Assembly: GCF_037042905.1 (NCBI RefSeq)
Contig: NC_087250.1
Span: 19,842,001 to 19,906,000 of the forward strand
Source: Lytechinus pictus
Lineage: Eukaryota
Direction: 5' to 3'
DNA: 64,000 bases
The notes beneath the pieces were generated by a model, which worked only from the letters and a program-made list of their open reading frames with translations, had not been told where the DNA came from and did not search any database. Within the stretch, counting starts at the first letter, position 1, and each line of letters starts with the position of its first letter. A program made the translations under genes and the position numbers. Positions 23,914-55,523 of the stretch are shown here, piece by piece.

Positions 23914-24229
23914 GGCCCGTATTCTGAAGTCGGGTTTAACTTAGACCATGGTCTAACTCTGTGTTAAAATGTTGGGAAGCCAAATGTTTCAAAATTTTGT
24001 TTACAGTAAATGCTTCTCATGTTTACTGCATGTGCTCTTTACTAATTCTTTCATGGTGAAGACAACTGTCATACTTATCCTTCCCAGGCAGTTAATAATG
24101 TTTTGGGAGTCAAATGAGCTGATACATTGAACCTCTACTGTTATAGATTTATGTAACAACTGGCTTTCCATAGTTAAACCACAACTTAAAACCAGAGTTT
24201 AAATTAAACCCGACTTTAGAATACGGGCC
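23914..24229. mobile_element. PIF/Harbinger-like MITE with 3-bp TSD TCA (duplicated copy at 27104-27419)
   Basis: TIR GGCCCGTATTCT(G/A)AAGTCGGGTTTAA; TCA on both sides. Confidence 0.85.
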
Positions 24230-24924
24230 TCAATATCTCATAGGGTTAGAGTAAGGACGGCAATAGAGCTTTTGGTTCAGAACATTGTAAAGATTCAACG
24301 GAGTAATTGTCACCGGAGCCCCGGGCGGGAGAAAATGTCATATGGGACCCAGGGCCTTCGGAACGATTTTAATGGGGGTGCTGATGTAAATTTGAAAAGG
24401 AAAAAAAAAGAAAAGAGAAAGGTTCTCAATACGAAATGAAGGCGATTTTCTTAAAGAAAAAAATTAAAAAGCCCCCCCCCCAAAAAAAAAAAAGAATGGG
24501 GGGGGGGGTTCTTAGGTTACAAAATTGAGGTCATTTCCGTCCGAGAAATTTGAAAAGCAAAAGAAAAAAGTTTTAACCACAATATGTAGGTCATTTTGGT
24601 TCCGAGAAATTTTAAAAGCAAAAAAAATTTAAAAAAGTTTTTCACGACAAAATGATGGTCATTTTCATTTATATTTTCCCCTTTTTTCACATCTTCAGTA
24701 ATTTAAGGGGGTGCTGCTGCCTATGAAGAATTATACACGCAGCACCCCTCTTCCCAGGGACACGATGGAACCCCTCAAATTAACGAAGCTTTGAATAAGA
24801 TATGACGGGCCTATATGATATTCACCCTCTACATAAGGTTTGGGTATTTACTTGGATAGAGGATTGGTGGAGAGATGTGTGGGTGGGGGTGGGGTATGCG
24901 CATGATATGGGCCGAGGGGGGGGG

Positions 24925-30332: not shown

Positions 30333-33300
30333 TACACAACAAAAAAAGTAAGCCCCCCCCTTGAACAAACATCAATAATTTCCGAACCAATACGAGTTTT
30401 TGATATATTTTTACATGAGCGTGTAGGTAATTTTATAAGCTACCATCTGAGTAAATGTTATGGATGTATTTTACGTCATGCTTCAGTGAGCACCGTCATA
30501 AGGCAAAAATGTCACTTTTCAAAAGTCACAAGCCAAAAATCATGACTTTGATTCCATTTTATTGGAACTGATTCCACATTCTTATCATGAAAAATAGTCA
30601 GAAGGCTTGTAAAAGGTACTTTCTAAAAGACGATACATTTTTTTGGCTAAATTTCACGGTTGAATAAACACAAGTCCAAATTTGCTATAATTGGATTTTT
30701 ACACATTTTCATCAATAAAAATGATAGAATATGATGACAGTTATTTTGGGGAAGAGTATCTTCAACAATATTCATCGTTTCACGGTTCAATGAACATTTA
30801 TTGAGAAAAAAAATACGGTTTTCAAATATCATAGGCAAGTATTGTTTCATTTTGGGAACTGAAACTGATCTTTTATCAATTTTTTTGTTATGTTCATGAC
30901 CAGTTAACACGCTCCAATGATTCAAAGGCGTTTAATTAAGCATTCACGCTTGAATGAACATGTGGAATGTGATTAGCTCTTTTTTACGTTATTGGAAAAA
31001 ATGCAATTTGTAACTATGGATATCTGTCTCAAACCTCCTTGCATGGTTCATTTGATTTGATTTTTATGAAAATCCCGATGTTTAATGCATCAGTGAGCAC
31101 ACAATATTCGAAAATTATGCAAATGAGAAGAAAGTTCAAGGCCTTGGCCCCACTCTGTGCCGTATCGAATTGTTATTTTGGTGTGCGCACCTTTTGGATA
31201 GTTTTACTCTGAAGCCATGTGCCAAGTTTCATGAAATAACTGTTGGCAGAAGTAACAAAAACCGTTCATGAAACAAACCCCTTATTTCATATTCGTTAAA
31301 AGTTTGACTTCCTCTCTAATAGACTTGTGTACATTATGGGTGCATATGTTTAAAGTATACATCCAAAGAATCAAAAGTATTTTATAATGACTTTATGTGG
31401 TCATCATTGTAAAGGGGAAGTATTACTAATCAGATATATAACTTCACTTTTCAAAATAGTGATCAGAGATTGCAGAAATCAGCTCTCAAAAATGATTTAT
31501 TTTCATGCCATCCCAGGTAACAAGCCAACGTTGGCTCCACGTTGGAAACTTGAAAGTCGTTGGACGTTGGGAAAACTTGATGGATTAACGTTGAATCGAC
31601 GTTGGAAACTAGTTTGATGGAAAGATGATGGACAATCAACAATGACACGACGTTGGCAACGTTGGAAACTTGTTAGTCGGAGAGTTGTTGGACAGTCGAC
31701 AATGTCACAACGTTGGAAACACGTTTGATTGGATAGTTGTTGAACAGCCAGCAAAGGCACAACGTTGGCAACGTTGGAAACTAGTTCGCTGGAAAGTTGT
31801 TGAACAACCGACAGTGGCACAACGTTGACAAAGTTGGAAACTAGTTTGTTGGAGATTTGTTGGACGGTCGACAATGGCACAACGTTGGAGACTAGTAAGT
31901 TGGAGAGTTGTTGGACAGTCGACAATGTCACAACGTTGGAGACACGTTTGATTGGATAGTTGTTGACAGCCAGCAAAGACACAACGTTGGAAACTAGTTC
32001 GCTGGAAAGTTGTTGAACAACCGACAATGGCACAACGTTGACAAAGTTGGAAACTAGTTTGTTGGAGATTTGTTGGACGGTCGACAATGGCACAACGTTG
32101 GAGACTAGTAAGTTGGAGAGTTGTTGGACAGTCGACAATGTCACAACGTTGGAGACACGTTTGATTGGATAGTTGTTGACAGCCAGCAAAGACACAACGT
32201 TGGCAACGTTGGAAACTAGTTCGCTGGAAAGTTGTTGAACAATCAACAATGACACGACGTTGGAAACTTGTTAGTTGGAGAGTTGTTGGACAGTCGACAA
32301 TGGCACAACGATGGAAATTAGTAGGTTGGAGATTAGTTGGATAGTCAACGATGACACAAGGTTGGCAACGTTGGAAACTAGTTCGATGGAAAGTTGTTGA
32401 ACAACCAACTATGGCACAACGTTGTCAAAGCTAGAAACTAGTTCGATGGAGATTTGTTGGATAGTCGACGATGGCACAACGTTGGAAACTGGTAGATTGG
32501 AGATTAGTTAGATAGTATACAATGACACAACGTTGATAAAGCTGGAAACTAGTTAGATGGAAAGTTGTTGAACAACTGACACTGGCACAACGTTGGAAAC
32601 TGGTAGATTGGAGATCAGTAGGATAGTCGACGATGACACAACGTTGGAAAGTTGTTGAACAACAGACAAAGGCACAACATTGGAAACTAGTGTGTTGGAG
32701 ATTTGTTGGACAGCCAACAACGTCACAACGTTGGAAACGCGTGTTTGATTGGATAGGTGTTGAACAGCCAACAAAGGCACAGCGTTGACTACGTCGGAAA
32801 CTAGTTCGATGGAGAGTTGCTGAACAACCGACAAAGGAACAACGTTGGAAACTATTTTCTTGGAGATTTGTTGGACAGTCGACAATGGCACAACGTTGAC
32901 AAAGTTGGAAACTAGTTTGATGGAGAGTTGTTGAACAACGGACAATGGCACAACGTGGACAGCGTAATTGGAATAGTTTATTGGACAGTTAACATTGACA
33001 CAATGTTGGAAACTATAGTTTGTTGGATATTTGTTTGACAGTCAACATAATATCCTGGCATAATATACACAGTGTTGAGAACGTTAGAAACTGGTTCATT
33101 GGAGAATTGATAATTGATAAAGTTGGCGGAGTACAGCAAGTCTGCATATGCCGACTTAACCCAAGACAAGACAAGACTACTGGCATAATTTCCAATGGGG
33201 CCAAGGGGGGGGGGTCGATCAAGTAAGTTTGCTTGTCTATCCATGTCACCCTTGGTATCCCCCAGCAATAAGGGGAAAAGAAATCGAGAGAGAAGGAAAA

Positions 33301-36300
33301 TAATGGGAAGGGAAAGAGGAACTAAAACTAAGTCTAAGGGGAAAACAAAAATAAAGATGGGGTAGAATAGAGAGGCTGCATGCACCTGGGGATGAATGTG
33401 TCGATTAATATAGAAAATAAAGAAGAAAAACAAGAAAAAAAATGTAGTTCAAGACCAGAATTTCCAGAAACGCCCTCGTCGATCCTTTGCAGCTGGCAAG
33501 GCCTTTCACAGTAAGTACGAGATATGTCATAGGCCTACCGTCACATAACTAGAAGAAATTGAAGAAGGAAATACAAGCATCAAATGTGCCTATTTAAAAA
33601 TACCATACTATTCTGATGCGCAGAATTAGTCGCGACGTCGGACTCCTTCTGTCATGTCTGTGTAGTCTGCTTCCTTCAATTTTGAACTTGAAGAATCTGG
33701 CAGAATTTGGACTGGATAGTGGATATAGATAAGTAAATTCCAGAATATCTAGTGATCTGGAACAGTACTTATAACCTGTATATTTAGGACCTACAATCTA
33801 CAGTTGAATTTTCTTTGCACTTGCAGATAATCGGTAACTGCAACCATTGATCCCCTCCGAAAGATCCCGGAGTCAGCTTCTGTGTGCGTACAGTCCGACG
33901 CTATAATATTCGTGTACTGTAAGTAGTAGTAAAGTAGTACTTAACACCAGTCACTGCACAGTATAACATACTAACTAACCTCGTAATTAGCTTGTGTGAG
34001 TGACTAATACTAACCTCGCAATACGTGTGAGTGGGAACGAGTATGCGATACCAATGGCAAGGCAACAGTCATTGGATGATTTTCAAAATTCAAGTACGTA
34101 CAGTGTTGAAATCTGGTGTTGGTGTATACTAATACTAACCTGGCAATACGTGTGAGTGTAACCCAGGGAGCTCCGGCCCGCTGTGCGGGCCGGAGCCCAG
34201 GGGCTTACCGTGTAATTCACAATACCCACGGTAGTAGCGTGAAGTATGGTCTAAATAATTATCCGAATAAATAGTTAAAACAGAAATTAAGCACTTACCA
34301 CGATTATATGGATGAAGGTCTAACGAGTGGCAGCTTCCTGACCCTTACAAAAAATTCCTGTAGTACTCTGTGATATGTACTGCAGGAAGTATCGCAGGAA
34401 AGTACTGCAGGAATTACGTGCACGTAATTTGGGACGGTACTACAGAAATGTACAACAGGAGTACAACAGGTCCGTGTCCTGTGATACTTCCTGTGGTAAT
34501 AACCGCATAAGTATGGCAGGAAGTATGACAGGACACGATCACCACAACCGCTACAACCGCTACAACCACTACCACACTACTATTAGTACTACAGGACAGT
34601 ATCACAGGATAGTATCACAGGATAGTATCACATGATAGTATGACAGGACAGTATGACAGGATAGTATGACAGGACAGTATGACAGGACAGTACTACAGGA
34701 ATACCGCAGACCAGTATCACAGGGAAGTACTACAGAACAGTATCGCAGGACAGTACTACAGGAGTACCGCAGGCTTCTGGTACTGTGTCCTGTAGTACTG
34801 TCCTGTGATACTGGTCTGGTATTCCTGTAGTACTGTCCTGTGATACTGGTCTGGTATTCCTGTAGTACTGTCCTGTGATACTGGTCTGGTATTCCTGTAG
34901 TACTGTCCTGTGATACTGGTCTGGTATTCCTGTAGTACTGTCCTGTGATACTGGTCTGGTATTCCTGTAGTACTGTCCTGTGATACTATCCTGTGGTGAT
35001 AAATAGTATGACAGGACAGTATGACAGGACAGTACTTTAGGAATTCCGCAGACCAGTATCACAGGAAAGTACTACAGAACAGTACTGCAGGAATACCAAG
35101 AGACCTTACCGCAGGACAATTCCTGCAGTACTGTCCTGTGGTATTCCTGTGATACTGATCTTTGATATCTTCTGTGGCATTATTGGTCTCATCCTGCAGC
35201 CTTCTTGTGATACTTTACTGTGGTAATCCTGCAGGGGTATTCTTGTTGATTTCCTGTGACAATCCTATGGTATTGTCCTGTAGTAGTCTGTGCGATTTTC
35301 TCACGACACCGTCCTGCACTGGTTTGTTAGGCGTAGTAGTTTGTAAGAATTTCCTGTGATCCAGCACAACAACTTTGACATCTTGACTAATGAAAAGAGG
35401 CATGAAAAAACCCACAAATTTGCAAAGACGTTAAAAGCATATTCACATACCTTTATTATGTATGAGCTGTACTATGCACAGTATAGAACATCTTTGATAT
35501 CATAAATGACTGCTAGAATAATGCAGTAACATTTCATCTTTAGGATAAGACATGTACAAAGATTTATATCCATGAACATTGAGATGCCACATGAACTACT
35601 TTCACTATTCATACATTGCTGCCATTTTGAGATCACATAAAGAAAGCTAGATTCGACCCAGAATCCTTCCCTCTAACACAACAATAAGCGATTATTATTA
35701 ATACCTTGGTCACATTCCTTGACCGGTTGCCTTACGGCGAGACAAAATCAGCAGTTTTAGGTATTCCTGTACAAACCACCCACGTGTAGCTGGTAGTAGC
35801 TGGTACAAGGATGATTAAGACTGTTAATTTTGACTCGACGTAAGGCCACGAGCCGGCGAATGTAACCAAGGCTTAACCAGTATTATGGTTGCAAAAAAAA
35901 CTGTAATAGCTGGGCAATTGCATTTTCCCCTTCTTGTCAACACCCGATTGGCTTAATACTAAAAGCAGAACATCCTTTACTCAACCATGTTATGAAACAA
36001 TGGATAACCACTTCTGCATGTACAGATAATGCATGGTGCACATACAGTAAGGGATGAAATTATGATGTGTTGATCACCAGTATAAACTTAAAGTACATGA
36101 ACGTAATCATAATCACTTCATTTTGCTCAGAATTCACTTAAGTCCATAAATACTGAAAGATATTTTTGAATGAATTTCACATGATTTAGAACGTTCACCA
36201 TAGGTTAGAAAAAATATGAACATAAGATTACTTTGCCAAAACGTAGATCAAATCTATTGAGACATTAACCTTTTTGACATTGAATAGGCATATCATTTTA

Positions 36301-37276
36301 CACAGTCTTCTTGTCTAAGAATTGCTCCAACTACGTATTGAAGGGTTATATATGAATGTAAGCATGAGCCCATCATAAACACGAAATTGCGGCATGTAAT
36401 TTGATTTGCTACATGTCATAATTGATAACTAAATGACGTTCAATACTTGATGTTGCTACATAAAATAATTAAGGTCATGTGGCAATGTGAATTCATACCT
36501 ACTCGAGTCATTTAGTAATTTCAATTAGTATATGACCTAATTAATTATGACATATAGCTCAAAATTGACTTGAATAATTATGACCAATTTGATTGACCTC
36601 AATTATTTGAAGTAGCAACATCAATTATTTAACATAAGCACTCTCAATCGAGGTGGAGTAACTCTTCTTTAGGTCATGTTACTATTCGAATTGGAACATG
36701 TCATTGTTTAGGTCATGCAGCAATTCAAATTACTTGCTCAAGTAAACAATTACAATTGTAATATCACGCAAAATGAATTAGCTGTACATGACATAATTCT
36801 GTTCTTTGATGGGCTTATGCTTCCATATATTAAGTAAATGGCTTTAATTCTTAATGATTATCCAAAAATTCATATACATAAAATAAACCAATATGAAGAG
36901 CATCATATCCAAAGTGATCACCAGTTCACCCAATGTTACAGTACAAAAATAAAAAGCTGATTTTCTTATGTACTTTCACACATGTTATACATGTGCACTG
37001 TATGTCACTTGACCCTGGCAGACAATAGAATTGACAAGCAGTGAGTCCTACATGTACATGTAGCTGCCTGGTTTGCATACTTTAATGTTATATGAATTTC
37101 AATCATGGCCATGTGCTGTTTATACACTAAATGGAGGGATCTTGTCATAATGTTATGTCAATTAAAAACTGAATAAAATCCCAATTATCCTGAATAGCTA
37201 GACTAGCCCCCTTGCAATGGACATTGTAATCTTGTTTTCTTTTACCTTTCATTATTTTTGAAAATTTTCATACAAC

Positions 37277-38205
37277 TAGGGCTGGGACTAAAACCCGGGT
37301 ACCCGAGTAGAAAAATCAATACCCGATACCCGAAAATTGCTCACCAGTATAATGTACATGTATTTGATTTGTATTGCGTAGTGTAAGACATGATTGTAAC
37401 TCATTACAAAAGTACACAAGCCTCATTTTGAATTTCACCAATTACCCTCTAAATATCCATAAATATACAAGTTTTCAAGTGATGATGATGTGACCGAGAT
37501 CGTTCAATCATCGCCATGTTTCTTTTGCAGCGCAGTGACGTCATCCAGCCACTGCGACGCAAACCAATTTATGAATGAAAATATAGTAAGCATGCGCATT
37601 GCAAGCCTCAGCCCCACGCAGTATTACGTCAAAACAAGTCTGCAATACTCTGTCACCTCATACCAAAATCGACCTACGAAGCACCAGCCAATCACGTTCT
37701 TGTTACCATTTTTAGTTCATCATAAACCGAAAATGGGAACACGATCGTGATTGGCTGGCGCATTTGACGCTCCGAAACCCGGAAATCAATTGACTTTGTT
37801 CACGTAGCGATACAAACTCACGAACACGATGTAATATCGATGCTACTTCGTAAGATTTTGACGGAAAAGCAAGAATAAAAATTTGCTTACCTGTGCAGTA
37901 TCGGTGAGAAAACCTTTTATAATTCATATGATATATAGGAAAGTGGAATTCTAGGTCGATTTTGGTACGAGGTGACAGAGTATTGAAACTTGTTTCGATG
38001 GAATACTGCGTGGGGCACGGGAGGCTTGCAATGCGCATGCTTACTATATTTTCATTCATAAATTGGCTTGCATCGCATTGGCTTGATGACGTCACCTATG
38101 GGGTTTTTCCACCAGTCATATTTCAAGTGACATGATTTTCAGGTACCCACCCGAAAATTACCACGGGTACCCGAAGAGAAAAAAAACCCGAAAGTCCCAG
38201 GCCTA
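37277..38205. mobile_element. hAT-like MITE with 8-bp TSD CATACAAC, containing an internal inverted repeat (about 37535-37675 vs 37950-38095)
   Basis: TIR TAGG(G/C)CTGGGACT; perfect TSD; ACCCG subterminal repeats. Confidence 0.88.
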
Positions 38206-38972
38206 CATACAACTCTTTGTTTTTTTTTATACTTTATCAAAGCTTTTATGATTATAAATGTAATTAAATAATTTGACTTGATAAATGTATATTACTGGTA
38301 TACTAATTGTGAATTTTTAGCAAGAAACAGTATTTGTGTTGGATTAATACATAAAAATGTTGCGAAATTTCGGAACAGCGTACCCAGGCATCACAAATTT
38401 GGTCTCAAAAGATGTGCAAGACTTGAAAGTAAAAAGGCAGCTAACAGCCTCCCAGTTATTAACCCTTAGTTAAATTGGACCAATTTGACCCCCCCCCCCT
38501 TCCAAAAATTTGGCGACCATGCTGTCGCACAATTTTTTTAAAACATGCCTCTTTCTAGTCTTGTGCATCTTTTGAGACCAATCTTGTGTCACCCGGTACG
38601 TGGTTCTGTAATAACGTGACATTATGTAAGTACATGTCATACCAAAAATTGCTAAAAAACGTGATTTTGTGTACAAAGTCAATGCAATAGAGGAAAAAGT
38701 ATGATTTTGTATTCTAATTACGCATAAATTAGTATTATCACTTACTAACAATTTGCGTGAAATAATTTACAATTTAATTTTGTAAATTATGCCCTAGACA
38801 ACCCATGTGCCAATGTTAGACGCGATTGTGCGGTCAAGATCTCAAGGAAGGGGGGGGGCCCTGGAAACCCCCCCTCCCCCCTTCCCCGGCCATATCAACT
38901 CCCAAAATACCCTGGCTTTAGTTGACTTTCTGGCTCCTCTTGAGTAGTCACCATTCATTGGACAGCTTGTTT

Positions 38973-41900
38973 TTATCCAAGTCTGTATAGCACGAGGCAG
39001 CTTAATCTGTAGAAAAAAAAACACATACCATTACGATAACATGAACAACATAAAAATACAAGAAATAAGGTGTTTTGCCCCCATCTAGATCTCTTTTCAC
39101 AAGTACATATCTATCGGATAATGAGGTCCTTGCGGCTATCTCTCTTAGCATATTCTTGCTTATAAAAGCAAACTAAGCCGAAGAGTGACAAACAATTTAT
39201 AATGCAAACAAATTGTCATAAGCACATATTGAAACTCTTTAATAAAACAATGAAGAATAAATCTACATCTTCTAACAAGGATTACACTGTATGCCACTGC
39301 ATGAATACAATCTGCTTAATTTTGTAATTATAATATCTACTGAAGTGAATGCCTATATAATCACCTTTTATGAACTCCAACCGTGTCTTGTACAAGAACA
39401 TGGCCTTTTCTGTGTACACCTGTAGTATCTTTCCCACATAATGCTGGACTTGCTGCTCGATCATCCAGAGATCCCTCTTTGAATCTTTAATGAAATGAAA
39501 TGAATTTGAGTGACATAGTAAAATTTTATTTGCAGGTTAATACAAATACATGATGTAATAAAAATACATGATAAAACTTCTTCATTTCCATATTTCAGTG
39601 TTACAATTCAGGTGCAAAGAGTCATATTCTTTAATAATATTCAACATAAAATCAATGAAAACTAGTGCTGTTGTCGATAGGCCTCATATCGACATTGATG
39701 TCGACATACGAAGGATTTTCAAAATTCCGACATGTCGACATGCACGCACCCACATCGACATGTAAACATAAAATAAAAAGGGGTCTAGCCTACAATCACG
39801 AGTGTAAAGATTAGCTGAAAAGTTAGAAGCATTTATCCACAGTAATTGGCGCGATTAAAAGGTTTATTCAGCTTAGCAGCGCATTAAATGAAAAAAGAAT
39901 ATCTGCGAGCTGTGCGGCAGTAGAAATACGTCAGTGCAGGGCCGGCCTGCCCGATCGAGCCGCCCTCGATATCCCGTTATAGCGAGAGTAGCATTCACCG
40001 TACCCATCCACGGAAATATGTACCCATCGCGCGCTATTCACCGTGCTTGATAATACGTTGCTCCTCAATGCATTACTTTTCACATAAACGTGAGCAGCAG
40101 CGAACACGTGTTTTTGTCAAAGTTGTGACTGCCGCAATTGAGCGCTTACTTCATATCACGAAGTCACAGAAAACTTCCCTTCATTCGTTTGGAGATCGCC
40201 GCGGAAGTGATACTGAAATTATCGGTCGATTTTCATTACTTTTCATTGTCAAATTGAGGAGCTTGCGTTTGCAGCAATGATCACTGTTGTAATTGGTGAT
40301 TCTCAAATTGGCTACGAGTGTTATTGAGCAATGCTTTCGAAACCGGATCCTGGTACAAAAACTTGATTCTCCAGAAAAAAAATGTGGATTAAATCGGTGA
40401 TTTTGGAAGCTCAATTCCCGAACTGAGCCTGTATTATATAGATCTAGTGTGGGGATATCACTCGTGTCAAGGTGAATATATTTGATTGAGAGTGTTGTTC
40501 CACGATCGAATGCTTTTTTTTTATGTTAGGGAGCCCAGGCTAAATTACGGTCCCTTTTTCATGTCGACATTGTCGATGTCGGGATTAATTTTTAAGCGAC
40601 ATGTCGACATGGATTTTTGTTCCCGACAACAGCACTAATGAAAACATTAAAAGTAGAGGAGCATTTTAACCTTACTCACAGTCTGTTATTGTCGCTAAAG
40701 TCTTTACAATAAGAAGATTGGGCACTTTGCCGACATCGCGTAATGCTTTGCATCGATTTACATGTATAATAGTCTTTGTGCCTAGTCTTTTCTATGTAGT
40801 GTCTATAATATGTAGATAAAACATGCGTCCTTTAGCTAGTTAGACGAACAATTTTGGAAATTAAAGACGGATCCATATTTTATCAACCGGAAGAGAAATT
40901 AGTGCTTAAATGAAGCTATTTGAGGGATATTGATGATATTTAGGGTGAATTGACTTCACATCTTTTCGTAAGTTTGTCATGTTCATAGAAGGCCGGACTT
41001 GATTTTATAGAAACCTCTTTTAAATTTGTGGGATTGCCTACCTCGAGTGAAGTTTGTGCAGGCTCCACTCCACTTCACTATTGCTACACTACGCTCCACC
41101 TACCCAAACTTTGAGACCGTGAACTGGATCTGTCGATCTGATATTCCGAGTGACAAAAAGTGGGATCTTATGGGGGGGGATATCAAATTCATGCAACATC
41201 ACGCTCTTTAAAAAAATTAAAACTAATATTCTTCCTGCACACAAAGTTTCAGTTCTTCTCCATGCCTCTATCCGTCTCAAAATTGATGATTTAGAGCCAA
41301 CATGAAGTTTCTCACACGTATCAATATTCAATACATCGCATGAGTGTGAGGTCGGTCGGGTCAGACCAGGCCCGGTATCTCGCGAATATTGCATCCGCAT
41401 GCAATGTTTTGAAATCGGCAGCGAATTATAAATATGTGTGAGGAACTTCATGTTGGCTCTAAATCACCAATTTTGAGACTGATAAAAGCATGGAACTAAA
41501 TGAAACTTTGTGTAAAGTAAGAATATTAGTTTTAATTCTTTTTAAAAATCAAGATGTTGCATGAATTTTATATTCCCCACCCCCATAAAATCCCACCTCT
41601 GTCACTCAGAATATCAGATCGAGTTCATGGTCTCGAAGTTCGCGTCTGTAACGTTGGCGAAGAACAATAGAAAACAAGATGGCGGCGTAAACATCGGGCA
41701 AGTCTCTTCCGTCTAATCATGATATTTTTCGCATTTTTTGGAATGAATTTCTTCTTCAAAAATAACGACGAGAGCGTAGAAATGTTGGAAATTAAGTTTT
41801 ATCCCATGTACATGATTTAGGTCTAACGTTAGGCTAGATCTTTTAGAGGGAAAGTAGAAATCTCGGGGCCGGGGGTGAAAGTTTCAAGTTTTGGCTTCCT

Positions 41901-42479
41901 CTGTGTGGGTATATGAGAAAGGATCCCTGGCTTCATATGAGAGTGACCTTACGAAGTTACGTTAGTAAATGATTTTCACTCTCTAGAAGCCGCCTGGCTA
42001 GGCCTACAGCCATTCCCGATCACGATATTTTGAAAAGTGGTGGATATATTGACTTCAAATGTGACTGAGAGACTTGTCATGACATTTGGGAACAAATATT
42101 GGTGATGAGGTATGCTGGTATTAATCGGCCGGTGCGAAACTGCATTAGCGCCCACCCCTGACCTTGCTACAATCATGACAATACAAACATCCTCACCGCC
42201 GCCATCAATATACTACTAACTTAGCCAGCCGTTGGCCGTCCCCGGCCGCGCACACCGCAGATCAGCCCCCACCCGATAAGCGATCGGGAACAACGGCAGT
42301 GCAGTGGCCGTACGGTAATGATTAAAAAGTCGAAGAAATTTAAGTGCATGCCGCGCCAAACTACGAAAAATGGATCTAACTTACTGTTTAGCCTGTTGTG
42401 TGAATGTCTTAAGAAGTCGTTGTCCGAATCTGATCCATATTCTGTTAGTTTTTGTTGAAATATTGACGGCCTTCTTCAT
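38973..42479 (-). CDS. Candidate four-exon gene of unknown function inside element C: join(42479..42385,40802..40680,39484..39365,39006..38973), 123 aa; may be a pseudogene or non-coding
   Basis: Donors GTAAGT, GTGAGT, GTGATT; acceptors TAG, AAG, CAG; all phase 2; internal exons 123 and 120 nt; YY1-like CCGCCATTT and ETS-like CCGGAA just upstream. No homology recognised. Confidence 0.3.
39663..40637. mobile_element. hAT-like MITE with 8-bp TSD ATGAAAAC
   Basis: TIR TAGTGCTGTTGTCG / CGACAACAGCACTA; perfect TSD; GTCGAC subterminal repeats. Confidence 0.9.
41107..41641. mobile_element. Degenerate foldback MITE
   Basis: About 210-bp imperfect inverted arms, e.g. GATTTAGAGCCAACATGAAGTT / AACTTCATGTTGGCTCTAAATC. 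Confidence 0.7.
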
Positions 42480-45400
42480 CAAGCTTCGGGTTCAGCTGAG
42501 CAGTTACGAACGTTTTTTTTCAAATGGCGGAACCGGAAACACGTATACGGTACAGTCCGTGCGTTTGTACTGTACGGGGAGCTCGGAGGGGGGGGGGGGG
42601 GGGTCTTACTTTTTACTTGGCAACCAGACAATTTGACTATTTTCGCCATCATTTATATATCATATTATTAACGTAAAGGAATTGAATAAAGTAAAATTCA
42701 AATATTTATTTCTTCTTCCTTTCTTTTTCTTTTCTATGTCTTTTAATTTTTTTCTTTCTCTTTATTCTTTTTTTTAATATAATATATAAGGATAGGATTT
42801 AAAAACATGTCTCACAATTTTACTGAAAATATGTTATATAGGCCTACTAGTATGCAAGTAGGATGACAAAGAAAGCAATGAGGAAAATCACAGCTCCAAT
42901 CCTATGTATTTTTAATTTTATTTCTTTTCAAAAACACACATTTTATCCTTTCTTGCGATCGAAGGAAAGATCCCTTTATAAGGTTCAAGTAGTAAAAGAA
43001 AATAATCTTAGATCAAGTGCCGGCAGGGTATTTTGATAAGGGGTGGAGGAGCAAGACAAGCAAATATAAAGATACCATTTTGAAGCGAAACATAAGAAAA
43101 GATAATAACTTTGCCAACGAGGTAAAAAATAATATGATATCGGTTGTGACACTTTAAGGATGGAAAATAGTTTGAAAATATATAGATACAAACTTCATAC
43201 AAATTAGAAAAAAAGAAGCAAAATAAACTGCCATCATATGTGAACAGAGATACAAGATTGTTCTTGCAATTAAAAAACATATTTACAAACTATATATAGC
43301 TTCGCATCATAAAAATAGATTGAAAATATCCAAATTTATTTGATTTAAAAAGAAATAGATATAAACCAGCCTGGCTAACATATTGCAAGGTGGCAAAGAT
43401 ATAAACCGGGGATATAAAGCAAAAAATAGGCCTTAAAATGGAAATTAAATATCCTATTTTTAGTTTATCCTATCCCAGGTAACAATACAGCGTTGGACCA
43501 ACGTTGGATCAACGTTGGGAAATTTTTTCCCAACGTTGCCTCAACGTTGGCAGGCCAACGTTGCATCATCGATAGAAGTGCACGCGCATACATCGTCAGA
43601 CCAACAACATTTCCAACGTTAGTTCAACGTTGTCCAGCAACAATGTTTCAACGTTGTCTGGCAACGTTGATCCAATGTTGGCTAAATAGTCAAATACAAC
43701 ATTGCTACAACGTTGGTAAGCAACGTTGTATCATCGATAGAAGTGCACGTCCATACATCGTCAGACCAACAACATTTCCAACGTCAGTTCAACGTTGTCC
43801 ACCATCAATACTCCAACGTTGGTATAATGTCGGCTGAGTCATCAATAACAGCGTTGCTGCAACGTTGATGGGCAACGTTGAAGCAGCGATGGACGTGCAC
43901 TTGCATACATCGTCAGTCCAACTATGTTTACAACGTTGGTTCAACGCTGTCCAGCAACAATGCTCCAACGTTGTCTGGCAACATTGCTCCAACATTGTTA
44001 CAACGTTGTCACAACGTTGCTCCAACATTGCTCCAACGTTATTCCAACGTATGGCAGTAATTAACAAAACATTAATTGGTTTCAAGGTGAAGTCCACCAT
44101 TACAACTCTACACTCAAATCTTTATCATCATATGTCTTATCCTATCCTAAAATCCTACATCCTAATCCTATATCCTATTCCTATCATCCTACACCTATCC
44201 ACTGTATCCTGTCATTGACTCCTATATATAGAGCAACTTTGCTATACTTGGCAGAATACAGTTAATATCATTTTCCACACTTAACCTTGAATATTTCACT
44301 TAGAATAATATGTTTTGATTATATATGATATGGTAATGGAGCCACATACTTTTCTGAAACTTTTCATGGTGGAAATATTGAATAAACATAAATACTCTAA
44401 TTATTATAGCAATATTACCTAAAATTTTGGTCATTTACTGATGTAATGAATATTCATGAGTGCATAATCATTGTCCAGATGAGGCAGGTATGGCAGCGTT
44501 GGTCCAATGTTGGTCCAACGTTGGGTGACGTTGATCCAACGTTGGTATAATGTTGGTCCAATGTTGATGGAAAGTTGATTCAACTTTAGTCCAATGTTAG
44601 TCCAACGTTGGCGTAAACGTTGATTCAATGTTTGTCTAATATCGGTTAAATGTTGTTGTAACGTTGATTCTTTGTTGGTCTAATTCTAAACAAATCCAAC
44701 GATGCGCCATCTCCATCAAACAGTTTTCAACACTGTGCCATCATCATCTGTAATCTGTTCATGATTCTATCAAAAAACATTACAACTATTATTACAGCTA
44801 TTCATTTCTTTTCATTCTTTCTGTTACAAGTCTCTTCACATAATTAAGAGAAATCAAGATAATTACGTGTGATATTTATTGAGGCCTTTGTAGCATTCAA
44901 ACTTTTTTGACATCCTCTTTTTCTCAAACAAGACTAATACCAAAAAAAACATATGCATATGTAATAAAAATTAAGATGTATTACATTTTCTTGCGAGTTG
45001 CAATCTCTGTTTCTGTCTACAATTGTTTAATGACTCGGTATGCAATGCCAATTGCAACGTCAGTAATCATCACAAAAACTCACATGTGTAATTGCAGTCT
45101 CTCAGTATTTACAAAATCAAAAAAGGAGGTCGCGTAACTTGGCCTCACTCAGAGTAACGTAGCTACTGCCTACTGTAACTAAAGAGTGCCTCTTTTTGAT
45201 TAAGATAGAAGTCAACTGATATCTCAATATGCATGGCCATGGCCTAGTCTCGCTCGTGCCATAACTATTAAATGATATTTCAGCGTCAAGTGTAGCATGC
45301 CTCACATAGCAACTACAGGTTTGACTGCAGTTGGAAAACACTCGGTCCAGGCTAGGCCAGGCAGGACCGACCAAGTCAATTCAAGGCAGCGTATAATAAA

Positions 45401-46025
45401 TAAGGCAGGAATGCCAGGTAGCAAGTCATTTGGGTGATTTCAAGTACGGTGTACGGTGTTGAGAGCGTGAAAGGGCTGCTGAACTGAGCTCCAACACCAA
45501 GCGTAATATTATTTTTCATTGAAATGTATTAAAACTCTAATGATTTGCTCTCATCTTAAATGTAAAAGATAATTTTACGGAGATGGTTCGTCGTGTTCGC
45601 CCCCTGTTCGTAATTAAGCTACAGTTCATCAACACCAACACTGAACTTTAAATCACGATTCTCCCAATCCCTGGGGTACGTCGGTGTTGCTGAATGGGGA
45701 AATTGCTTGTAGATCATCAACACCATGCAGCCACAGTGCAGTGTTGGGTTCAGCAGATGACATTCAACACCAGCCTTCAACACAAACTGCCGGAAATACA
45801 CCATATTTTCCGAGGTCAATCTTAACACCAGCCTGATTCAAGTACGGTGTTGTCACAACACCAACACTAACCCAGGGAGCTCCGGCCTGCTCAGCGGGCC
45901 GGAGCCCAGGGGCTTACCGTGTAATTCAGCGTGTAATACTTCACGCTACTACCGTGGGTATGGTGAATTACACGGTAAGCCCCTGGGCTCCGGCCCGCGC
46001 AGCGGGCCGGAGCTCCCTGGGTTAC

Positions 46026-46204
46026 ACTCACACGTATTGCCAGGTTAGTATTAGTATACTAACCTCGCACCACGAACCGCGTTTGGCAGTGGATTTCTTA
46101 CTAGTGGGTCGCACGTGCTGGGATCTCACTTCTTGGGTCCACAACACACGACTTCTATGGCTTGATTTTTCTGTGCGCGGCGGCATGTAATGAACCCTTG
46201 GGTG
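46026..46204 (+). mobile_element. TIR-less ~180-bp element with 10-bp TSD CCTGGGTTAC
   Basis: ACTCACACGTATTG...GAACCCTTGGGTG; perfect direct repeats at 46016-46025 and 46205-46214; further copies at 57361-57560 and 57788-57974. Confidence 0.8.
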
Positions 46205-46972
46205 CCTGGGTTACACCAACACCAGATTTCAACACTGTACTTGAATTTTGAAAATCATCCAATGACTGTTGCCTTGCCATTGGTATCGCATACTCGTTCC
46301 CACTCACACGTATTGCGAGGTTAGTATTAGTCACTCACACAAGCTAATTACGAGGTTAGTTAGTATGTTATACTGTGCAGTGACTGGTGTTAAGTACTAC
46401 TTTACTACTACTTACGGTACACTAGCGTCGGACTGTACGCACACAGAAGCTGACTCCGTGATCTTTCGGAGGGGATCAATGGTTGCAGTTACCGATTATC
46501 TGCAAGTGCAAAGAAAATTCAACTGTAGATTGTAGGTCCTAAATATACAGCTTATAAGTACTGTTCCAGATCACTAGATATTCTGGAATTTACTTATCTA
46601 TATCCACTATCCAGTCCAAATTCTGCCAGATTCTTCAAGTTCAAAATTGAAGGAAGCAGACTACACAGACATGACAGAAGGAGTCCGACGTCGCGACTAA
46701 TTCTGCGCATCAGAATAGTATGGTATCTTTAAATAGGCACATTTGATGCTTGTATTTCCTTCTTCAATTTCTTCTAGTTATGTGACGGTAGGCCTATGAC
46801 ATATCTCGTACTTACTGTGAAAGGCCTTGCCAGCTGCAAAGGATCGACGAGGGCGTTTCTGGAAATTCTGGTCTTGAACTACATTTTTTTTCTTGTTTTT
46901 CTTCTTTATTTTCTATATTAATCGACACATTTGCATCCCCAGGTGCATGCAGCCTCTCTATTCTACCCCATC

Positions 46973-48008
46973 CAGGGGCGGATCCAGCTTTCGCCAAAAG
47001 GGGGGGCCGAAAAATATTTTCATCAACATTTTTCCCGATTGGCCCCTATAATCTGATTTTTTTCTTGGTTTTTCAGGGGGTAGTCCTAACAATAGACTGA
47101 AGTTTTAAGTATATGTTAGTTTTTATTGTTATAAACAAGATAAGGTATCTCATGTGGTCTTAATATATAATGCGAGCGCGATGTGCGAGCTAAAATTCTT
47201 TGATATTTTATGTCCTTAGAACTGAAGATTCTGAGCATTTTTTATAATCATGAACAAAAATAAGTATCCAACTAAACAATGCGAGCGCGAAGCGCGAGCC
47301 GAAATTTTATTATAGTAACGTGAAAAGGGACTCAATTAGGACTATTTTTAGTGATTAATGAAAAGGATACAAGTATCACCAATTAAATAATGAGAGTGCG
47401 AAGCGCGAGCTCTAAATTTTTGATATTCCGACCTGAAAACTGGACAGTCTAAGCGCCTATTTATTTAAATAAAGAACAAGCTGTGTGTCTCAATAATTTG
47501 TTGGTATACTCACATGATAAAGGAGCATTTTGACAAATTTTGGAAAGAATTTCCAAAGAGGATAGGTATCTCACAAATTAAACAATGCGAACGCGCAGCG
47601 CGAGCTGAAAATTTTGATACAACAATTTGTGTAAATCAAACAAAATAATGAAAGCTTGATGTGCGAGCTAAAATATTGTGTGCAAATTGATTTCAGAACT
47701 GGATATATTAAGTGTCCTTTAATCCTCTTGAATGGGATTCATTACACAGGCAATGCAAACGCGAAGTGCGAGCGAAAGTTTTGATATAAAGTCTATTTTC
47801 CAATTCTTCCCCTCACCTTTTTCTTGTTTCCTTTCGGGGTCGGGCCGGCCGTTACGAGGCTGTAAATTACATGGGTATAATAACCTCTTTCCTACTTTTC
47901 TGTCTGTTTTTCGTAGTTTCTATCAAGTTAAAGAGTACACTTTTCTGCAAGTTGTAAAAAAATAGGGGGGGCCGGGGCCGGCTCGGCCCCCTCCTGGATC
48001 CGCGCCTG
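46973..48008. mobile_element. MITE with 5-bp TSD CCATC
   Basis: TIR CAGG(G/C)GCGGATCCAG; the empty site (a single CCATC) is present in the outer AB copy at about 33356-33360. Confidence 0.92.
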
Positions 48009-51000
48009 CCATCTTTATTTTTGTTTTCCCCTTAGACTTAGTTTTAGTTCCTCTTTCCCTTCCCATTATTTTCCTTCTCTCTCGATTTCTTTTCCCCTTA
48101 TTGCTGGGGGATACCAAGGGTGACATGGATAGACAAGCAAACTTACTTGATCGACCCCCCCCCCTTGGCCCCATTGGAAATTATGCCAGTAGTCTTGTCT
48201 TGTCTTGGGTTAAGTCGGCATATGCATGCAGACTTGCTGTACTCCGCCAACTTTATCAATTATCAATTCTCCAATGAACCAATTTCTAACGTTCTCAACA
48301 CTGTGTATATTATGCCGGGATATTATGTTGACTGTCAAACAAATATCCAACAAACTATAGTTTCCAACATTGTGTCAATGTTAACTGTCCAATAAACTAT
48401 TCCAATTACGCTGTCCATGCACGTTGTGCCATTGTCCGTTGTTCAACAACTCTCCATCAAACTAGTTTCCAACTTTGTCAACGTTGTGCCATTGTCGACT
48501 GTCCAACAAATCTCCAAGAAAATAGTTTCCAACGTTGTTCCTTTGTCGGTTGTTCAGCAACTCTCCATCGAACTAGTTTCCGACGTAGTCAACGCTGTGC
48601 CTTTGTTGGCTGTTCAACACCTATCCAATCAAACACGCGTTTCCAACGTTGTGACGCTGTTGGCTGTCCAACAAATCTCCAACACACTAGTTTCCAATGT
48701 TGTGCCATTGTCTGTTGTTCAACAACTTTCCAACGTTGCCAACGTTGTGTCATCGTCGACTATCCTACTGATCTCCAATCTACCAGTTTCCAACGTTGTG
48801 CCAGTGTCAGTTGTTCAACAACTTTCCATCTAACTAGTTTCCAGCTTTATCAACGTTGTGTCATTGTATACTATCTAACTAATCTCCAATCTACCAGTTT
48901 CCAACGTTGTGCCATCGTCGACTATCCAACAAATCTCCATCGAACTAGTTTCTAGCTTTGACAACGTTGTGCCATAGTTGGTTGTTCAACAACTTTCCAT
49001 CGAACTAGTTTCCAACGTTGCCAACCTTGTGTCATCGTTGACTATCCAACTAATCTCCAACCTACTAATTTCCATCGTTGTGCCATTGTCGACTGTCCAA
49101 CAACTCTCCAACTAACAAGTTTCCAACGTTGCCAACGTCGTGTCATTGTTGATTGTTCAACAACTTTCCAGCGAACTAGTTTCCAACGTTGCCAACGTTG
49201 TGTCTTTGCTGGCTGTCAACAACTATCCAATCAAACGTGTCTCCAACGTTGTGACATTGTCGACTGTCCAACAAATCTCCAACAAACTAGTTTCCAACTT
49301 TGTCAACGTTGTGCCATTGTCGGTTGTTCAACAACTTTCCAGCGAACTAGTTTCCAACGTTGCCAACGTTGTGCCTTTGCTGGCTGTTCAACAACTATCC
49401 AATCAAACGTGTTTCCAACGTTGTGACATTGTCGACTGTCCAACAACTCTCCGACTAACAAGTTTCCAACGTTGCCAACGTCGTGTCATTGTTGATTGTC
49501 CATCATCTTTCCATCAAACTAGTTTCCAACGTCGATTCAACGTTAATCCATCAAGTTTTCCCAACGTCCAACGACTTTCAAGTTTCCAACGTGGAGCCAA
49601 CGTTGGCTTGTTACCTGGGATTCCACCTGTAAAAAATATTGTGAATAGGAGAACAAATATTGAAGTAATTTTATTTATAATAATATATTTGTAAGAAAAT
49701 AGGTCCTTTTTACAAAAAAAAATAAATAAAAAAATAGATGGGAAACTTGGAAAAATGTATTTTCTCGCAATAAAAACTTTAAGGGGCCAGAATCGCATTA
49801 AAACTTGGTTATGAAACGTGTAAAACAAAATCTTAGATAGCATTTTAACTGAGATTTATTTTTTAATCAACATTCAACGCTGAACTTTCTTATGTTAATT
49901 GTTTATCAATATTTTGTGAAAACAGATAGTGTGCACATCGTCATGAATATTCATTTGGTGGGCTGATGATGTGACATTCCCATTTTTCTTTTTTAATGTT
50001 AGATATGAAATTATGATTATCTATTTTTTCAATACATGTGTAAATAATGTGTCCCCATTGTAAAGTTGCTGCATTAAATAACTAATGCGGTTAATTAGTC
50101 GTCATTCCAATTGTTTAAGTTCTTGGTAGAAATATGTTGAATAAATCTAATTTCATATATTGTACAAAAGAACATGGGATATGACATCATCAGCCCACCT
50201 AATGAATATTCATGAGACATGCCTAAATAAAACTGTTTCATGGGAATATTGCAAATCCTTAAAATTCAACTTAACTTCGTTATTTGTCATCCGATTTTGA
50301 ATAAATTTTAAGCATTTTGTTTTGTGAATTTTACTCTATTTATTGATTATCTCTAGCGTTGACCTCCCCTTCAATTATTTTCTTGTATTGTTAGAAAGAG
50401 ATGGATGAAGTAGAATAATACGTTCATGCTTATATTTTTATTCATTACAATATCTCTTTGAAATTCAACCCGGCTTCCTCACAACCATTAAGCTCTAAGA
50501 GTGTTAGGTGTGTCCTGTATATTTCAACACGTACCCTTTTAAATATAGTCATTTTTTTATTATTCATCCTGTTTTTTATGAAAAATAAGTGGCGAACAAA
50601 CAAAACAAAAATGATAATTGAAATTTAAAAGAGCGCATGAAAAAGAAATAACCCTGAAAACGAACAATAGTCCTCAAAATATAAGTTGCCCATTTTGGGG
50701 TCAATAATTTTTCGCATTTTTCAGTTCGCGCTTTGCTCCTAGTTTTGATCTAGTACGTATAGTACCCTTTCTCGTAGAAATAGAAGCTATCAAACTTAAA
50801 ACCTCTGAGTCTCAGTAGGCATAACCCCCCCCCCCCCTCGCTGATATAGACCTACACATATGGGACAGGGTGAAATATAATTTTGAAATAGGGCCTATAT
50901 GTCACAATCTAGCTATCACAAAATTAAATTTTCATATAAAAAATTGTACTTTTTAAAATGAATGGTGCCCTTTTAAGCCATATGGCCTTCTAAAAATATA

Positions 51001-54000
51001 AGACTCAATACGCTACTGACCTCTCCCGAAACTGAAAAAAAAGATAAATCCCTCACTGGAAAAAAAAAAATTAGTCTGTGGTACAAACAGGGCTTCCATA
51101 CAAGTACTGAAGGAAACTAATTTTTTCATGTACTGTACCACAGAAAATACACCAGTAGCGTCTGTGATACAGTTTCAGTCATATTTCTGGGGTGGCTGCA
51201 TGAGAAGTACCGCAGGAAATTTTGAAAGTATAGCACTGGGGTTGCCATAGAATTTTAGAAGTGCCTATATTGAGTCCTGCAGGAAATTTCAAAATTTTCA
51301 TTTACCACAGAAGTATCACAGGGTTTTCATAGAAGTGCTTAGTAATAGGAGTACTGCAGGAAATTTAAAAAATGTTCATATACAACAGAAGTATCGCAGG
51401 GTTGTCATAGAAGTACTGCAGGATATTTTAGAATTTTCATGTACAACAGAAGTACGACATAACTATCACAGAGTGATATTGTATACAGTTATGTACAACA
51501 GAAGTATTACACAGGTACGACAGAGTACCATTAAGGTATTGCATGAAATTTTCATATTTTTACGTACAGAAGTAGAACTATCACAGAGTGATACCACAGG
51601 AGTCCTGTAGTAATTCCTTATACAGTTTTGTACAACAGAAGTATCACACAGGTACGACAGAGTACCATTAAGGTATTGCATGAAATTTTCATATTTTTAT
51701 GTACCACAGAAGTATGACAGAACTATCACAGAGTGATACCACAGAAGTCCTGTTGTAATTCTATATACAGTTTTGTACAACAGCAGTATCACACAGGTAC
51801 GACAGAGTACCATTAAGGTATTGCATGAAATTTTCATATTTTCCTGTACCACAGAAGTATGACAGAACTATCACAGAGTGATACCACAGAAGTCCTGTTG
51901 TAATTCTATATACAGTTTTGTACAACAGAAGTATCACACAGGTACGACAGAGTACCATTAAGGTATTGCAGGAAATTTTCATATTTTCCTGTACCACAGA
52001 AGTATGACAGAACTATCACAGAGTGATACCACAGAAGTCCTGTGGTAATTCTGAGGTACCGTCGTGTATGACAGAAGTATCACACAGGTACAACAGAGTA
52101 CCACTAAAGTACTGCAGGAATTTTTTGTAAGGGGACATCGAGGCACAGACTGGAACCTAAAAAAAACGAAAAGTTCTGTGGCGGTAGCTCTCCTCTTTCA
52201 GAATTCAAAACAAAATGGCCGATTGAGACCGAGACTAATAGCACTAGTGCATTAGTATACATCTCTATGATATAGACTTTGTCAAATTCGCCCATGCGCC
52301 CTACACCCTCGGTACCGGTCTCGAACGGCCATTTTGCTATGAATTCTGAAAGAAGGAGAGCTACCGCGCGACATAACTTTTTCGTTTTTTGAGGTTCCAG
52401 TCTGTGCCTCGATGTCAGGAAGCTGCCAATCGTTAGACCTTCATCCATATAATCGTGGTAAGTGCTTAATTTCTGTTTTAACTATTTATTCGGATAATTA
52501 TTTAGACCTACTTCACGCTACTACCGTGGGTATGGTGAATTACACGGTAAGCCCCTGGGCTCCGGCCCGCTGAGCGGGCCGGAGCTCCCTGGGTTAGTGT
52601 TGGTGTTGTGACAACACCGTACTTGAATCAGGCTGGTGTTAAGATTGACCTCGGAAAATATGGTGTATTTCCGGCAGTTTGTGTTGAAGGCTGGTGTTGA
52701 TTGTCATCTGCTGAACCCAACACTGCACTGTGGCTGCATGGTGTTGATGATCTACAAGCAATTTCCCCATTCAGCAACACCGACGTACCCCAGAGATTGG
52801 GAGAATCGTGATTTAAAGTTCAGTGTTGGTGTTGATGAACTGTAGCTATTACGAACAGGGGGCGAACACGACGAACCATCTCCGTAAAATTATCTTTTAC
52901 ATTTAAGATGAGAGCAAATCATTAGAGTTTTAATACATTTCAATGAAAAATAATATTACGCTTGGTGTTGGAGCTCAGTTCAGCAGCCCTTTCACGCTCT
53001 CAACACCGTACACCGTACTTGAAATCACCCAAATGACTTGCTACCTGGCATTCCTGCCTTATTTATTATACGCTGCCTTGAATTGACTTGGTCGGTCCTG
53101 CCTGGCCTAGCCTGGACCGAGTGTTTTCCAACTGCAGTCAAACCTGTAGTTGCTATGTGAGGCATGCTACACTTGACGCTGAAATATCATTTAATAGTTA
53201 TGGCACGAGCGAGACTAGGCCATGGCCATGCATATTGAGATATCAGTTGACTTCTATCTTAATCAAAAAGAGGCACTCTTTAGTTACAGTAGGCAGTAGC
53301 TACGTTACTCTGAGTGAGGCCAAGTTACGCGACCTCCTTTTTTGATTTTGTAAATACTGAGAGACTGCAATTACACATGTGAGTTTTTGTGATGATTACT
53401 GACGTTGCAATTGGCATTGCATACCGAGTCATTAAACAATTGTAGACAGAAACAGAGATTGCAACTCGCAAGAAAATGTAATACATCTTAATTTTTATTA
53501 CATATGCATATGTTTTTTTGGTATTAGTCTTGTTTGAGAAAAAGAGGATGTCAAAAAAGTTTGAATGCTACAAAGGCCTCAATAAATATCACACGTAATT
53601 ATCTTGATTTCTCTTAATTATGTGAAGAGACTTGTAACAGAAAGAATGAAAAGAAATGAATAGCTGTAATAATAGTTGTAATGTTTTTTGATAGAATCAT
53701 GAACAGATTACAGATGATGATGGCACAGTGTTGAAAACTGTTTGATGGAGATGGCGCATCGTTGGATTTGTTTAGAATTAGACCAACAAAGAATCAACGT
53801 TACAACAACATTTAACCGATATTAGACAAACATTGAATCAACGTTTACGCCAACGTTGGACTAACATTGGACTAAAGTTGAATCAACTTTCCATCAACAT
53901 TGGACCAACATTATACCAACGTTGGATCAACGTCACCCAACGTTGGACCAACATTGGACCAACGCTGCCATACCTGCCTCATCTGGACAATGATTATGCA

Positions 54001-55523
54001 CTCATGAATATTCATTACATCAGTAAATGACCAAAATTTTAGGTAATATTGCTATAATAATTAGAGTATTTATGTTTATTCAATATTTCCACCATGAAAA
54101 GTTTCAGAAAAGTATGTGGCTCCATTACCATATCATATATAATCAAAACATATTATTCTAAGTGAAATATTCAAGGTTAAGTGTGGAAAATGATATTAAC
54201 TGTATTCTGCCAAGTATAGCAAAGTTGCTCTATATATAGGAGTCGATGACAGGTTACAGTGGATAGGTGTAGGATGATAGGAATAGGATATAGGATTAGG
54301 ATGTAGGATTTTAGGATAGGATAAGACATATGATGATAAAGATTTGAGTGTAGAGTTGTAATGGTGGACTTCACCTTGAAACCAATTAATGTTTTGTTAA
54401 TTACTGCCATACGTTGGAATAACGTTGGAGCAATGTTGGAGCAACGTTGTGACAACGTTGTAACAATGTTGGAGCAATGTTGCCAGACAACGTTGGAGCA
54501 TTGTTGCTGGACAGCGTTGAACCAACGTTGTAAACATAGTTGGACTGACGATGTATGCAAGTGCACGTCCATCGCTGCTTCAACGTTGCCCATCAACGTT
54601 GCAGCAACGCTGTTATTGATGACTCAGCCGACATTATACCAACGTTGGAGCATTGATGGTGGACAACGTTGAACTGACGTTGGAAATGTTGTTGGTCTGA
54701 CGATGTATGGACGTGCACTTCTATCGATGATACAACGTTGCTTACCAACGTTGTAGCAATGTTGTATTTGACTATTTAGCCAACATTGGATCAACGTTGC
54801 CAGACAACGTTGAAACATTGTTGCTGGACAACGTTGAACTAACGTTGGAAATGTTGTTGGTCTGACGATGTATGCGCGTGCACTTCTATCGATGATGCAA
54901 CGTTGGCCTGCCAACGTTGAGGCAACGTTGGGAAAAAAATTCCCAACGTTGATCCAACGTTGGTCCAACGCTGTATTGTTACCTGGGATATTTCTGCCTT
55001 CCACCGGTCCTCTTGCGAGCTCCAGCTGAGTGACGTCACACAATGAGCAGTGAGCAGCTGAGCTGACAGCAGCCCATTGGAGACGATCTTTCCAATCAGC
55101 GTTTTTTGCTCTTAGAATTGTTTATTCCTCTTAAGATTGGTCTTGTTATATAGATAAAAGTTTGAATTTACTGAACAGTGAAAAAAGTGCACATTTAACG
55201 TATTTTGGTGACCGATATTTAGCTTAGAATTTTTTTTTTTTTTCAAGAAATATAGGTGAATAAACAAAGCATATTTTCACGTAGAAATCACACTTGCGTC
55301 ACATTAATGTTATAGTCAATATAAAGCATAGACATTCTTCTTTATGACTGAACAAAAATTATGAAATTTCATTAAGTAGCAAAGTCAGGAATCACAAAAA
55401 AAACACGGCAATATCCATCGCGAAATGACTGAAATTGCAGTTGAATTGCCGAAGCATTATTAGGAAACAGCGGCGAGCGGACTTTCTTTCATATATCTTA
55501 AAAATGCCTTCCTGTTAGGGCGA

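Follow-up and report, generated by a model that had tools for sequence, protein, structure and literature searches.

The window analysed here is a 64,000-nucleotide stretch of the Lytechinus pictus genome (NCBI RefSeq assembly GCF_037042905.1, contig NC_087250.1, positions 19,842,001 to 19,906,000 of the forward strand), and all coordinates count from its first letter. It is AT-rich, repeat-filled DNA that contains element E (34342..52133, strand not assigned), a non-autonomous DNA transposon with CCC..GGG ends. E measures 17,792 bp, or 11,644 bp once an inner copy of a second CCC..GGG element, AB, is subtracted. It lies in a foldback repeat that is itself enclosed by an outer AB copy, and its interior holds exon-like DNA on the minus strand.

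Ends, arrays and nesting of element E

The ends of E are 19-bp terminal inverted repeats (TIRs; 34342..34360, plus strand, and 52115..52133, minus strand) that start with CCC and match each other perfectly over exactly 19 bases. A scan of the 64-kb window showed the TIR sequence to be unique, even at the 8-mer level. Copies of a GA target site duplication (TSD) flank the element at 34340..34341 and 52134..52135, both on the plus strand. E splits the host foldback into a left portion (34159..34341, plus strand) and a remainder (52136..52596, plus strand), whose right arm carries the empty site, present once and uninterrupted at 52407 on the minus strand with a single GA. When the flanks of E are joined through one GA, a 644-bp foldback is recovered; its arms can be aligned through the junction, the outer arm being 97.8% alike over 182 bp. 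A separated perfect 19-bp inverted pair appeared in one of 60 Markov-simulated 64-kb windows, and such a pair with a 2-bp duplication in none of the 60. Taken together, the exact TIRs, the GA duplication, the foldback restoration and the simulation control indicate that both ends joined the target in one event, as the sequence-only reading had proposed along with its estimate of about 11.6 kb without inner AB. The structure is that of a single cut-and-paste event, which brought in an 11.6-kb unit without detectable transposase. A TIR scan of metagenome contigs returned one match, L001, judged to be chance; it lies inside unrelated coding-like DNA with just 21 bases alike.

Next to the TIRs, the left subterminal region (34361..35345, inner edge approximate) carries the 10-bp motif TAYNRCAGRA in alternating blocks, among them an array of 13-bp units (34591-34763) and one of 35-bp units that is perfect (34788-34987, period 35, 100%). 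The right subterminal region (51050..52114) carries the same motif and a 145-bp higher-order array (51482-52125, period 145, 93%). Within the window, 70 of the 76 matches to the motif fall within 34365-35285 and 51136-52110, and at both ends the motif fades out gradually toward the interior. The asymmetry that had been remarked upon between 35-bp and 145-bp units is real as regards the periods. However, one motif builds both ends, and since both arrays are higher-order repeats of it, the asymmetry is superficial and marks no difference in kind. En/Spm elements, too, carry subterminal arrays of a short motif at either end. Where the right subterminal region meets the interior, 51050-51083 forms a degenerate TIR-like start with the same grammar as the true ends. 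Its score of 19/50 is equalled by the top background site among 1,724 CCC starts, under a pattern written post hoc, and it is therefore a hint only.

The outer AB copy (31512..54987, plus strand) encloses the foldback and E, and the inner copy (43474..49619, minus strand) lies within E as a separate CCC..GGG element with a 12-bp TIR and AT on both sides. AB is a young element of about 6 kb with subterminal arrays rich in CAACGTTG, and AT flanks all four ends of the two copies. These are inverted relative to each other and 99.6% alike over 2.4 kb; outside the arrays, 15 of 3,824 aligned bases differ (0.39%). In the inner copy the 644-bp foldback is represented by a 157-bp form, and there are additional inserts at ~46060-46211 and 46973-48008; a Pfam search of AB over 44050-47000 gave no match.

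Sequencing runs provided a view of the order of events. For 35300-43470, 24 runs were listed, nine of which, from three studies, share at least half of its words. Four runs (X1, X5, X23 and X24) were compared over 35200-43530, which amounts to 8,331 of the 17,792 element bases and includes neither terminus; eleven runs of organism C, with shares of 0.06-0.12, lay outside the comparison. In the DNA-like run X5, record 16 stops matching the reference at 43477, and 368 of its letters are unplaced and unseen. After one mismatch, the predicted AB-free site agrees with the AB start for another three letters, so that an exit at 43477 is as predicted. Inner AB is the latest insertion, as supported by this one DNA run, and is apparently absent from X5. 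The nest has four layers, in the order AB, foldback, E and AB again.

Judged on its end structure alone, E is a non-autonomous TRC/EnSpm-type (CMC) element. piggyBac elements duplicate TTAA; the flanks of E read ..CTGA and GACA.., and piggyBac was rejected. CCC ends with a 2-bp duplication are described as the mark of the animal TRC branch of CACTA/EnSpm (PMC1636069; PMC4298943). The earlier proposal of an animal CMC/EnSpm element agrees with the CCC TIR, the GA duplication and the motif arrays present here.

Minus-strand RNA and age of the interior

Run X1, which is taken to be RNA from its splice joints (no listed run is recorded as RNA), contains contigs that join 39006 to 39365 at a depth of 415 and 39484 to 42385 at a depth of 543. 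Both joints are CT..AC on the plus strand, corresponding to GT..AG on the minus strand, and both have strong pyrimidine tracts. On the minus strand they delimit exon 1 (42385..42530, with the donor at 42385 shown and the 5' end placed by a CpG-rich stretch and depth), intron 1 (39485..42384, 2,900 nt, containing nested miniature inverted-repeat transposable elements, MITEs), exon 2 (39365..39484, 120 nt), intron 2 (39007..39364, 358 nt) and exon 3, or the long 3' part (35640..39006, 3' end not fixed). X1 depth is ~270-540 over exons and ~10-40 over introns, a 10- to 50-fold contrast; in exon 3 it stays at ~270-424 down to 35842 and is 87 below ~35670. Because the high-depth RNA ends ~300 bp short of the left subterminal repeats, the transcription unit fits inside the element. 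The interior appears to be a transcription unit read into spliced RNA, and the exon-like DNA noticed there from sequence is now matched by two splice joints in one run. Reads of X23 over 39092-39647 lie on a single strand only (5.15 and 2.51 versus 0), which fits minus-strand RNA provided that the library was made by the usual stranded protocol. X1 shows only 4 differences from the reference in 4,400 bases and could be near the source of the window.

We infer that the RNA starts near 42.5 kb, in a CpG-rich stretch. Promoter motif support at the presumed start is weak, and a strict YY1 pattern matched only at 41685. That YY1-like motif belongs to a CpG-rich stretch in intron 1 (41640-42150), multi-copy by depth, which is probably another repeat carrying promoter-like sequence. 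The first ATG of the RNA opens an 82-codon frame through all three exons, and a second frame, without a start, is open for 71 codons over exons 1 and 2. An open reading frame (ORF) of at least 82 amino acids arose in 5% of 573-nt simulations and in 35% of 3.6-kb simulations, and the ORF is therefore borderline against chance. No credible relatives were found for its separate exon pieces, the joined ORF not having been searched, which leaves room for a small conserved protein. Two weak matches of the exon-2 frames among protein representatives were to unrelated repeat proteins and were discarded as spurious.

In the 3' part, the foldback at 35640-35875 reaches an X1 depth of 1,000-2,000, versus 424 nearby, while DNA depth is flat; the peak could reflect 3' bias, an additional exon or edited variants. 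The small foldback itself (35700..35875) would form a long RNA hairpin in exon 3 (z -8.6) and has the top X1 depth among non-repeat bins. Over 35200-43530, places with T>C outnumber those with A>G in the RNA-like runs (27:14, 52:33 and 36:22; one-sided p 0.03, 0.025 and 0.043), and the DNA run X5 gives 18:22. The excess would be compatible with adenosine-to-inosine (A-to-I) editing of hairpins in the minus-strand RNA. Other MITE copies contribute many of the reads, however, the RNA-like runs share sites, and the direct comparison of X1 with X5 gives p 0.075, so the editing signal is a lead only.

Nested repeats account for 4,150 of the 9,552 bp of the E interior, plus the small 35.7-kb foldback (~45%). 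They comprise an old foldback with arms ~71% alike that is crossed by unbranched contigs (36312..36878), a hAT-like MITE with an intact 8-bp TSD and an inner foldback at 37535-38095 (37277..38205), a high-copy repeat with a second copy at 4175-4770 of the window (38314..38920, limits approximate), a second hAT-like MITE with an intact 8-bp TSD within intron 1 (39663..40637), a foldback with 87% arms, also within intron 1 (41038..41645), and a foldback repeat on the right side of the interior (49907..50370, right limit approximate).

Comparison with X5 indicates how old this assembly of repeats is. X5 has a flat depth of ~7-14 outside repeats, with no single-copy calibration, and shows the compared interior as a single sequence type, which differs from the reference at 38 of 5,696 bases (0.67%) in eight listed contigs, a further 575 pieces being unseen; it may represent an allelic version of this locus or a different copy. 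X5 contigs span three of the four junctions of the hAT-like MITEs by at least 31 letters and the fourth by 30, in agreement with the suggestion that the interior includes older MITEs. One unbranched 1,124-nt contig of X5 spans the boundary between the left subterminal region and the interior at a constant depth of 13.8 (all three bins over 35200-36033 read 13.8), and contigs of two runs connect the left subterminal edge with the interior. The interior of E is older than the insertion and was carried in with the ends, since X5 contains it, 0.67% different, over the stretch compared, shares the MITE junctions and exits at the AB-free position; AB came last. An interior consisting purely of later insertions is not what was found, as only inner AB looks later. 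At the left boundary X5 showed no second contig at 90% identity or more (one run, with a filter that may drop records). No separate donor is seen there, which leaves capture of host DNA by a Pack-type element unproven.

The interior was also searched for protein and RNA families. Six read-through frames over 35300-43470 and 49620-51250 gave no Pfam family at the cut-off, in a scan with no real-transposase positive control; 34342-35300, 43470-44050, 47000-49620 and 51250-52133 lay outside it. Within that scope the claim of a transposase-free interior stands. Rfam gave no match at the gathering score over the E interior, and its seven microRNA-hairpin matches in 35300-43470, far under the cut-off, are read as foldbacks. 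A host gene for small nucleolar RNAs was rejected in the absence of an Rfam match at the gathering score (H/ACA was not scanned separately); the sole C box found lies inside a nested MITE of exon 3.

Origin of the interior

On balance, we consider it somewhat probable that the interior is the element's own worn En/Spm-type transcription unit, from which the transposase has been lost. This explanation is favoured because the RNA lies within the ends, because a donor was not seen and because spliced transcripts are known from truncated copies of TRC elements (PMC1636069). E would then be a large, low-copy, non-autonomous animal CACTA/EnSpm (TRC, CMC) transposon. A transposase and a repeat-binding factor made elsewhere would recognise its 19-bp ends and TAYNRCAGRA arrays, by analogy with En/Spm; TnpA is described as binding the terminal motifs of plant Spm elements (bioRxiv 10.64898/2026.08.24.746577). 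The interior aged and gathered MITEs at earlier sites, as its old arms and shared junctions show. The 11.6-kb unit, as its structure shows, moved whole into the foldback within young AB, duplicating GA, and the second AB copy would then have jumped into E, as one DNA run supports. The contrast in age is visible in the AB copies, 0.39% apart, versus nested foldback arms just 71% alike. The interior would be transcribed toward the left end by RNA polymerase II, as a unit of three exons that starts at a CpG-rich promoter inside the element, and the worn unit would now yield a non-coding or micro-ORF RNA.

Several observations weigh against an origin as the element's own unit. Each splice joint is represented by one contig of one run, whose shorter side is 28-30 letters long; no joint reads came from X23 or X24 in the ~6% of each run that was read, and exon 2 is without depth in X24. 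The presumed promoter lies ~3.5 kb from the right end, whereas that of En/Spm is at the element end. No protein relic was found by Pfam or with the exon-2 frames: a protein Atlas search and a homologue search among longer proteins were both negative for both frames, although such short queries make a weak test. The flat X5 depth of ~7-14 looks like one or few copies and not a family, and the ~45% of the interior made up of ordinary nested repeats is as in host DNA. The 51050 start, finally, is a hint that the right end began as an independent ~1.1-kb element.

The last of these points leads to the next explanation, a Pack-type capture, which we regard as possible but tentative. Here, two neighbouring small family elements would have flanked a host long non-coding RNA (lncRNA) gene with its promoter, and the left end and the ~1.1-kb right unit (from 51050) would have been excised jointly by their outer ends. 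Such a mechanism has been proposed for plant Pack-CACTA elements (PMC6379663), an expressed captured gene is described in flies (Ssk-FB4; PMC8277862), and the interior is host-like in its nested MITEs and CpG-rich promoter stretch. The X5 depth over it is low and flat, and the TIR-like start at 51050 shares the grammar of the true ends. However, that start scores no better than the best background site under its post hoc pattern, the gradual motif decay at the inner edges of both ends suggests a long association, and the left boundary in X5 shows no parental copy at 90% identity or more (one unbranched contig, from records that a filter may thin). The median insert of animal Pack-TIRs, 224 bp in the cited survey (PMC8277862), is also far smaller. 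Capture is ranked below the own-unit origin and is retained because the interior is host-like and seemingly low-copy and because of the hint at 51050. In its fullest form, a CACTA-type element would carry a whole active host lncRNA gene with no parental copy left, mobile, single-copy and possibly A-to-I-edited; we regard this as doubtful.

Less plausible again is that an old non-autonomous element grew by nesting and acquired a promoter and splice sites by chance, its RNA being transcriptional noise of de novo origin. The lack of a conserved ORF is in keeping with this, as are the frequency of 82-amino-acid ORFs in simulations (5% at 573 nt, 35% at 3.6 kb), the nested repeats that make up 2,103 of the 3,367 nt of the last exon, and the missing depth on exon 2 in one of the two raw RNA runs. 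Two canonical introns with strong pyrimidine tracts, the 10- to 50-fold exon/intron contrast in X1 and a second frame open for 71 codons over exons 1 and 2 make it unlikely. An assembly or rearrangement artefact, in which the interior never moved between these ends, is highly improbable. In its favour, inverted and nearly identical repeats are nested in one another here (AB, 99.6% over 2.4 kb), and the run comparison, over 8,331 of 17,792 bases, spans neither terminal junction. Against it, the TSD and foldback restoration are exact, two runs have contigs that connect the left subterminal edge with the interior, and X5 leaves the reference at the position predicted for an AB-free copy.

Relation to known elements and significance

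E resembles the En/Spm and dSpm elements of maize and Arabidopsis in its short TIR and its one-motif arrays in both orientations at both ends, and it resembles En/Spm in a single spliced transcription unit through the body. Unlike En/Spm, whose TSD is 3 bp, it has CCC instead of CACTA, a 2-bp TSD, an internal promoter and no TnpA/TnpD homology. Closer likenesses are described among animal elements: SmTRC1 of Schistosoma (PMC1636069) and Spongebob/EnSpm-4N1_HM (PMC4298943) share CCC..GGG ends, a 2-bp TSD and insertion within other repetitive DNA, and spliced transcripts are likewise reported for animal TRC elements, truncated copies included (PMC1636069). In contrast to the elements in these accounts, E shows no detected Transposase_21 or other Pfam domain, its RNA has no recognisable protein, and it is larger (11.6 kb versus 4.5-9.2 kb). 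It does not qualify as an autonomous TRC/EnSpm element, Transposase_21 not being detected in 35300-43470 and 49620-51250 (no positive control).

Transposon ends around non-transposase DNA do occur in E, as expected of Pack-type elements. Arabidopsis Pack-CACTA elements have non-autonomous CACTA-type ends of this kind, and some of their captured sequences are likewise of no known origin (PMC6379663). Compared with those described there, E has no donor shown, an animal host, a far larger interior and its own promoter. With Ssk-FB4 of Drosophila and other animal Pack-TIRs it shares TIR ends around an expressed, spliced unit (PMC8277862). Its interior is ~9.5 kb versus the median of 224 bp, with no parent seen and no protein. 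As defined in that source, a Pack-TIR requires a parental copy at 90% identity or more; none of the interior was found within the window or seen at the left boundary in the one DNA run compared, and E is therefore not classed as one. A literature search, with Repbase and most subscription journals outside it, found no such sea-urchin element and none with a non-coding RNA. What is notable in E is an expressed, spliced RNA of unsettled origin within a known kind of element.

Other features of the window lie outside the nest. At 23053-29440, a 3.2-kb tandem duplication with 99.5% identity, whose units each end in a purine-rich 76-bp array, is either a recent duplication or an assembly artefact. 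An EF-hand coding stretch at 17465-17737 on the plus strand (PF00036, E 4e-11), ~14 kb left of the nest, is probably an exon of a host calcium-binding gene. An open frame at 63607-63999 on the minus strand, with a weak zf-RVT match (E 2e-4), is probably the tail of a long interspersed nuclear element that runs off the edge of the window.

As a decayed EnSpm-type element, E provides a clean example of a four-layer nest with a datable order and would indicate that large transposase-less elements can remain mobile and strongly transcribed. Should the interior instead be an RNA gene captured from the host, E would offer an example, rare among animals, of an entire expressed locus moved by a DNA transposon. 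The captured lncRNA gene would then comprise a promoter, two introns and a 3' end over ~9.5 kb, about forty times the median Pack-TIR insert.

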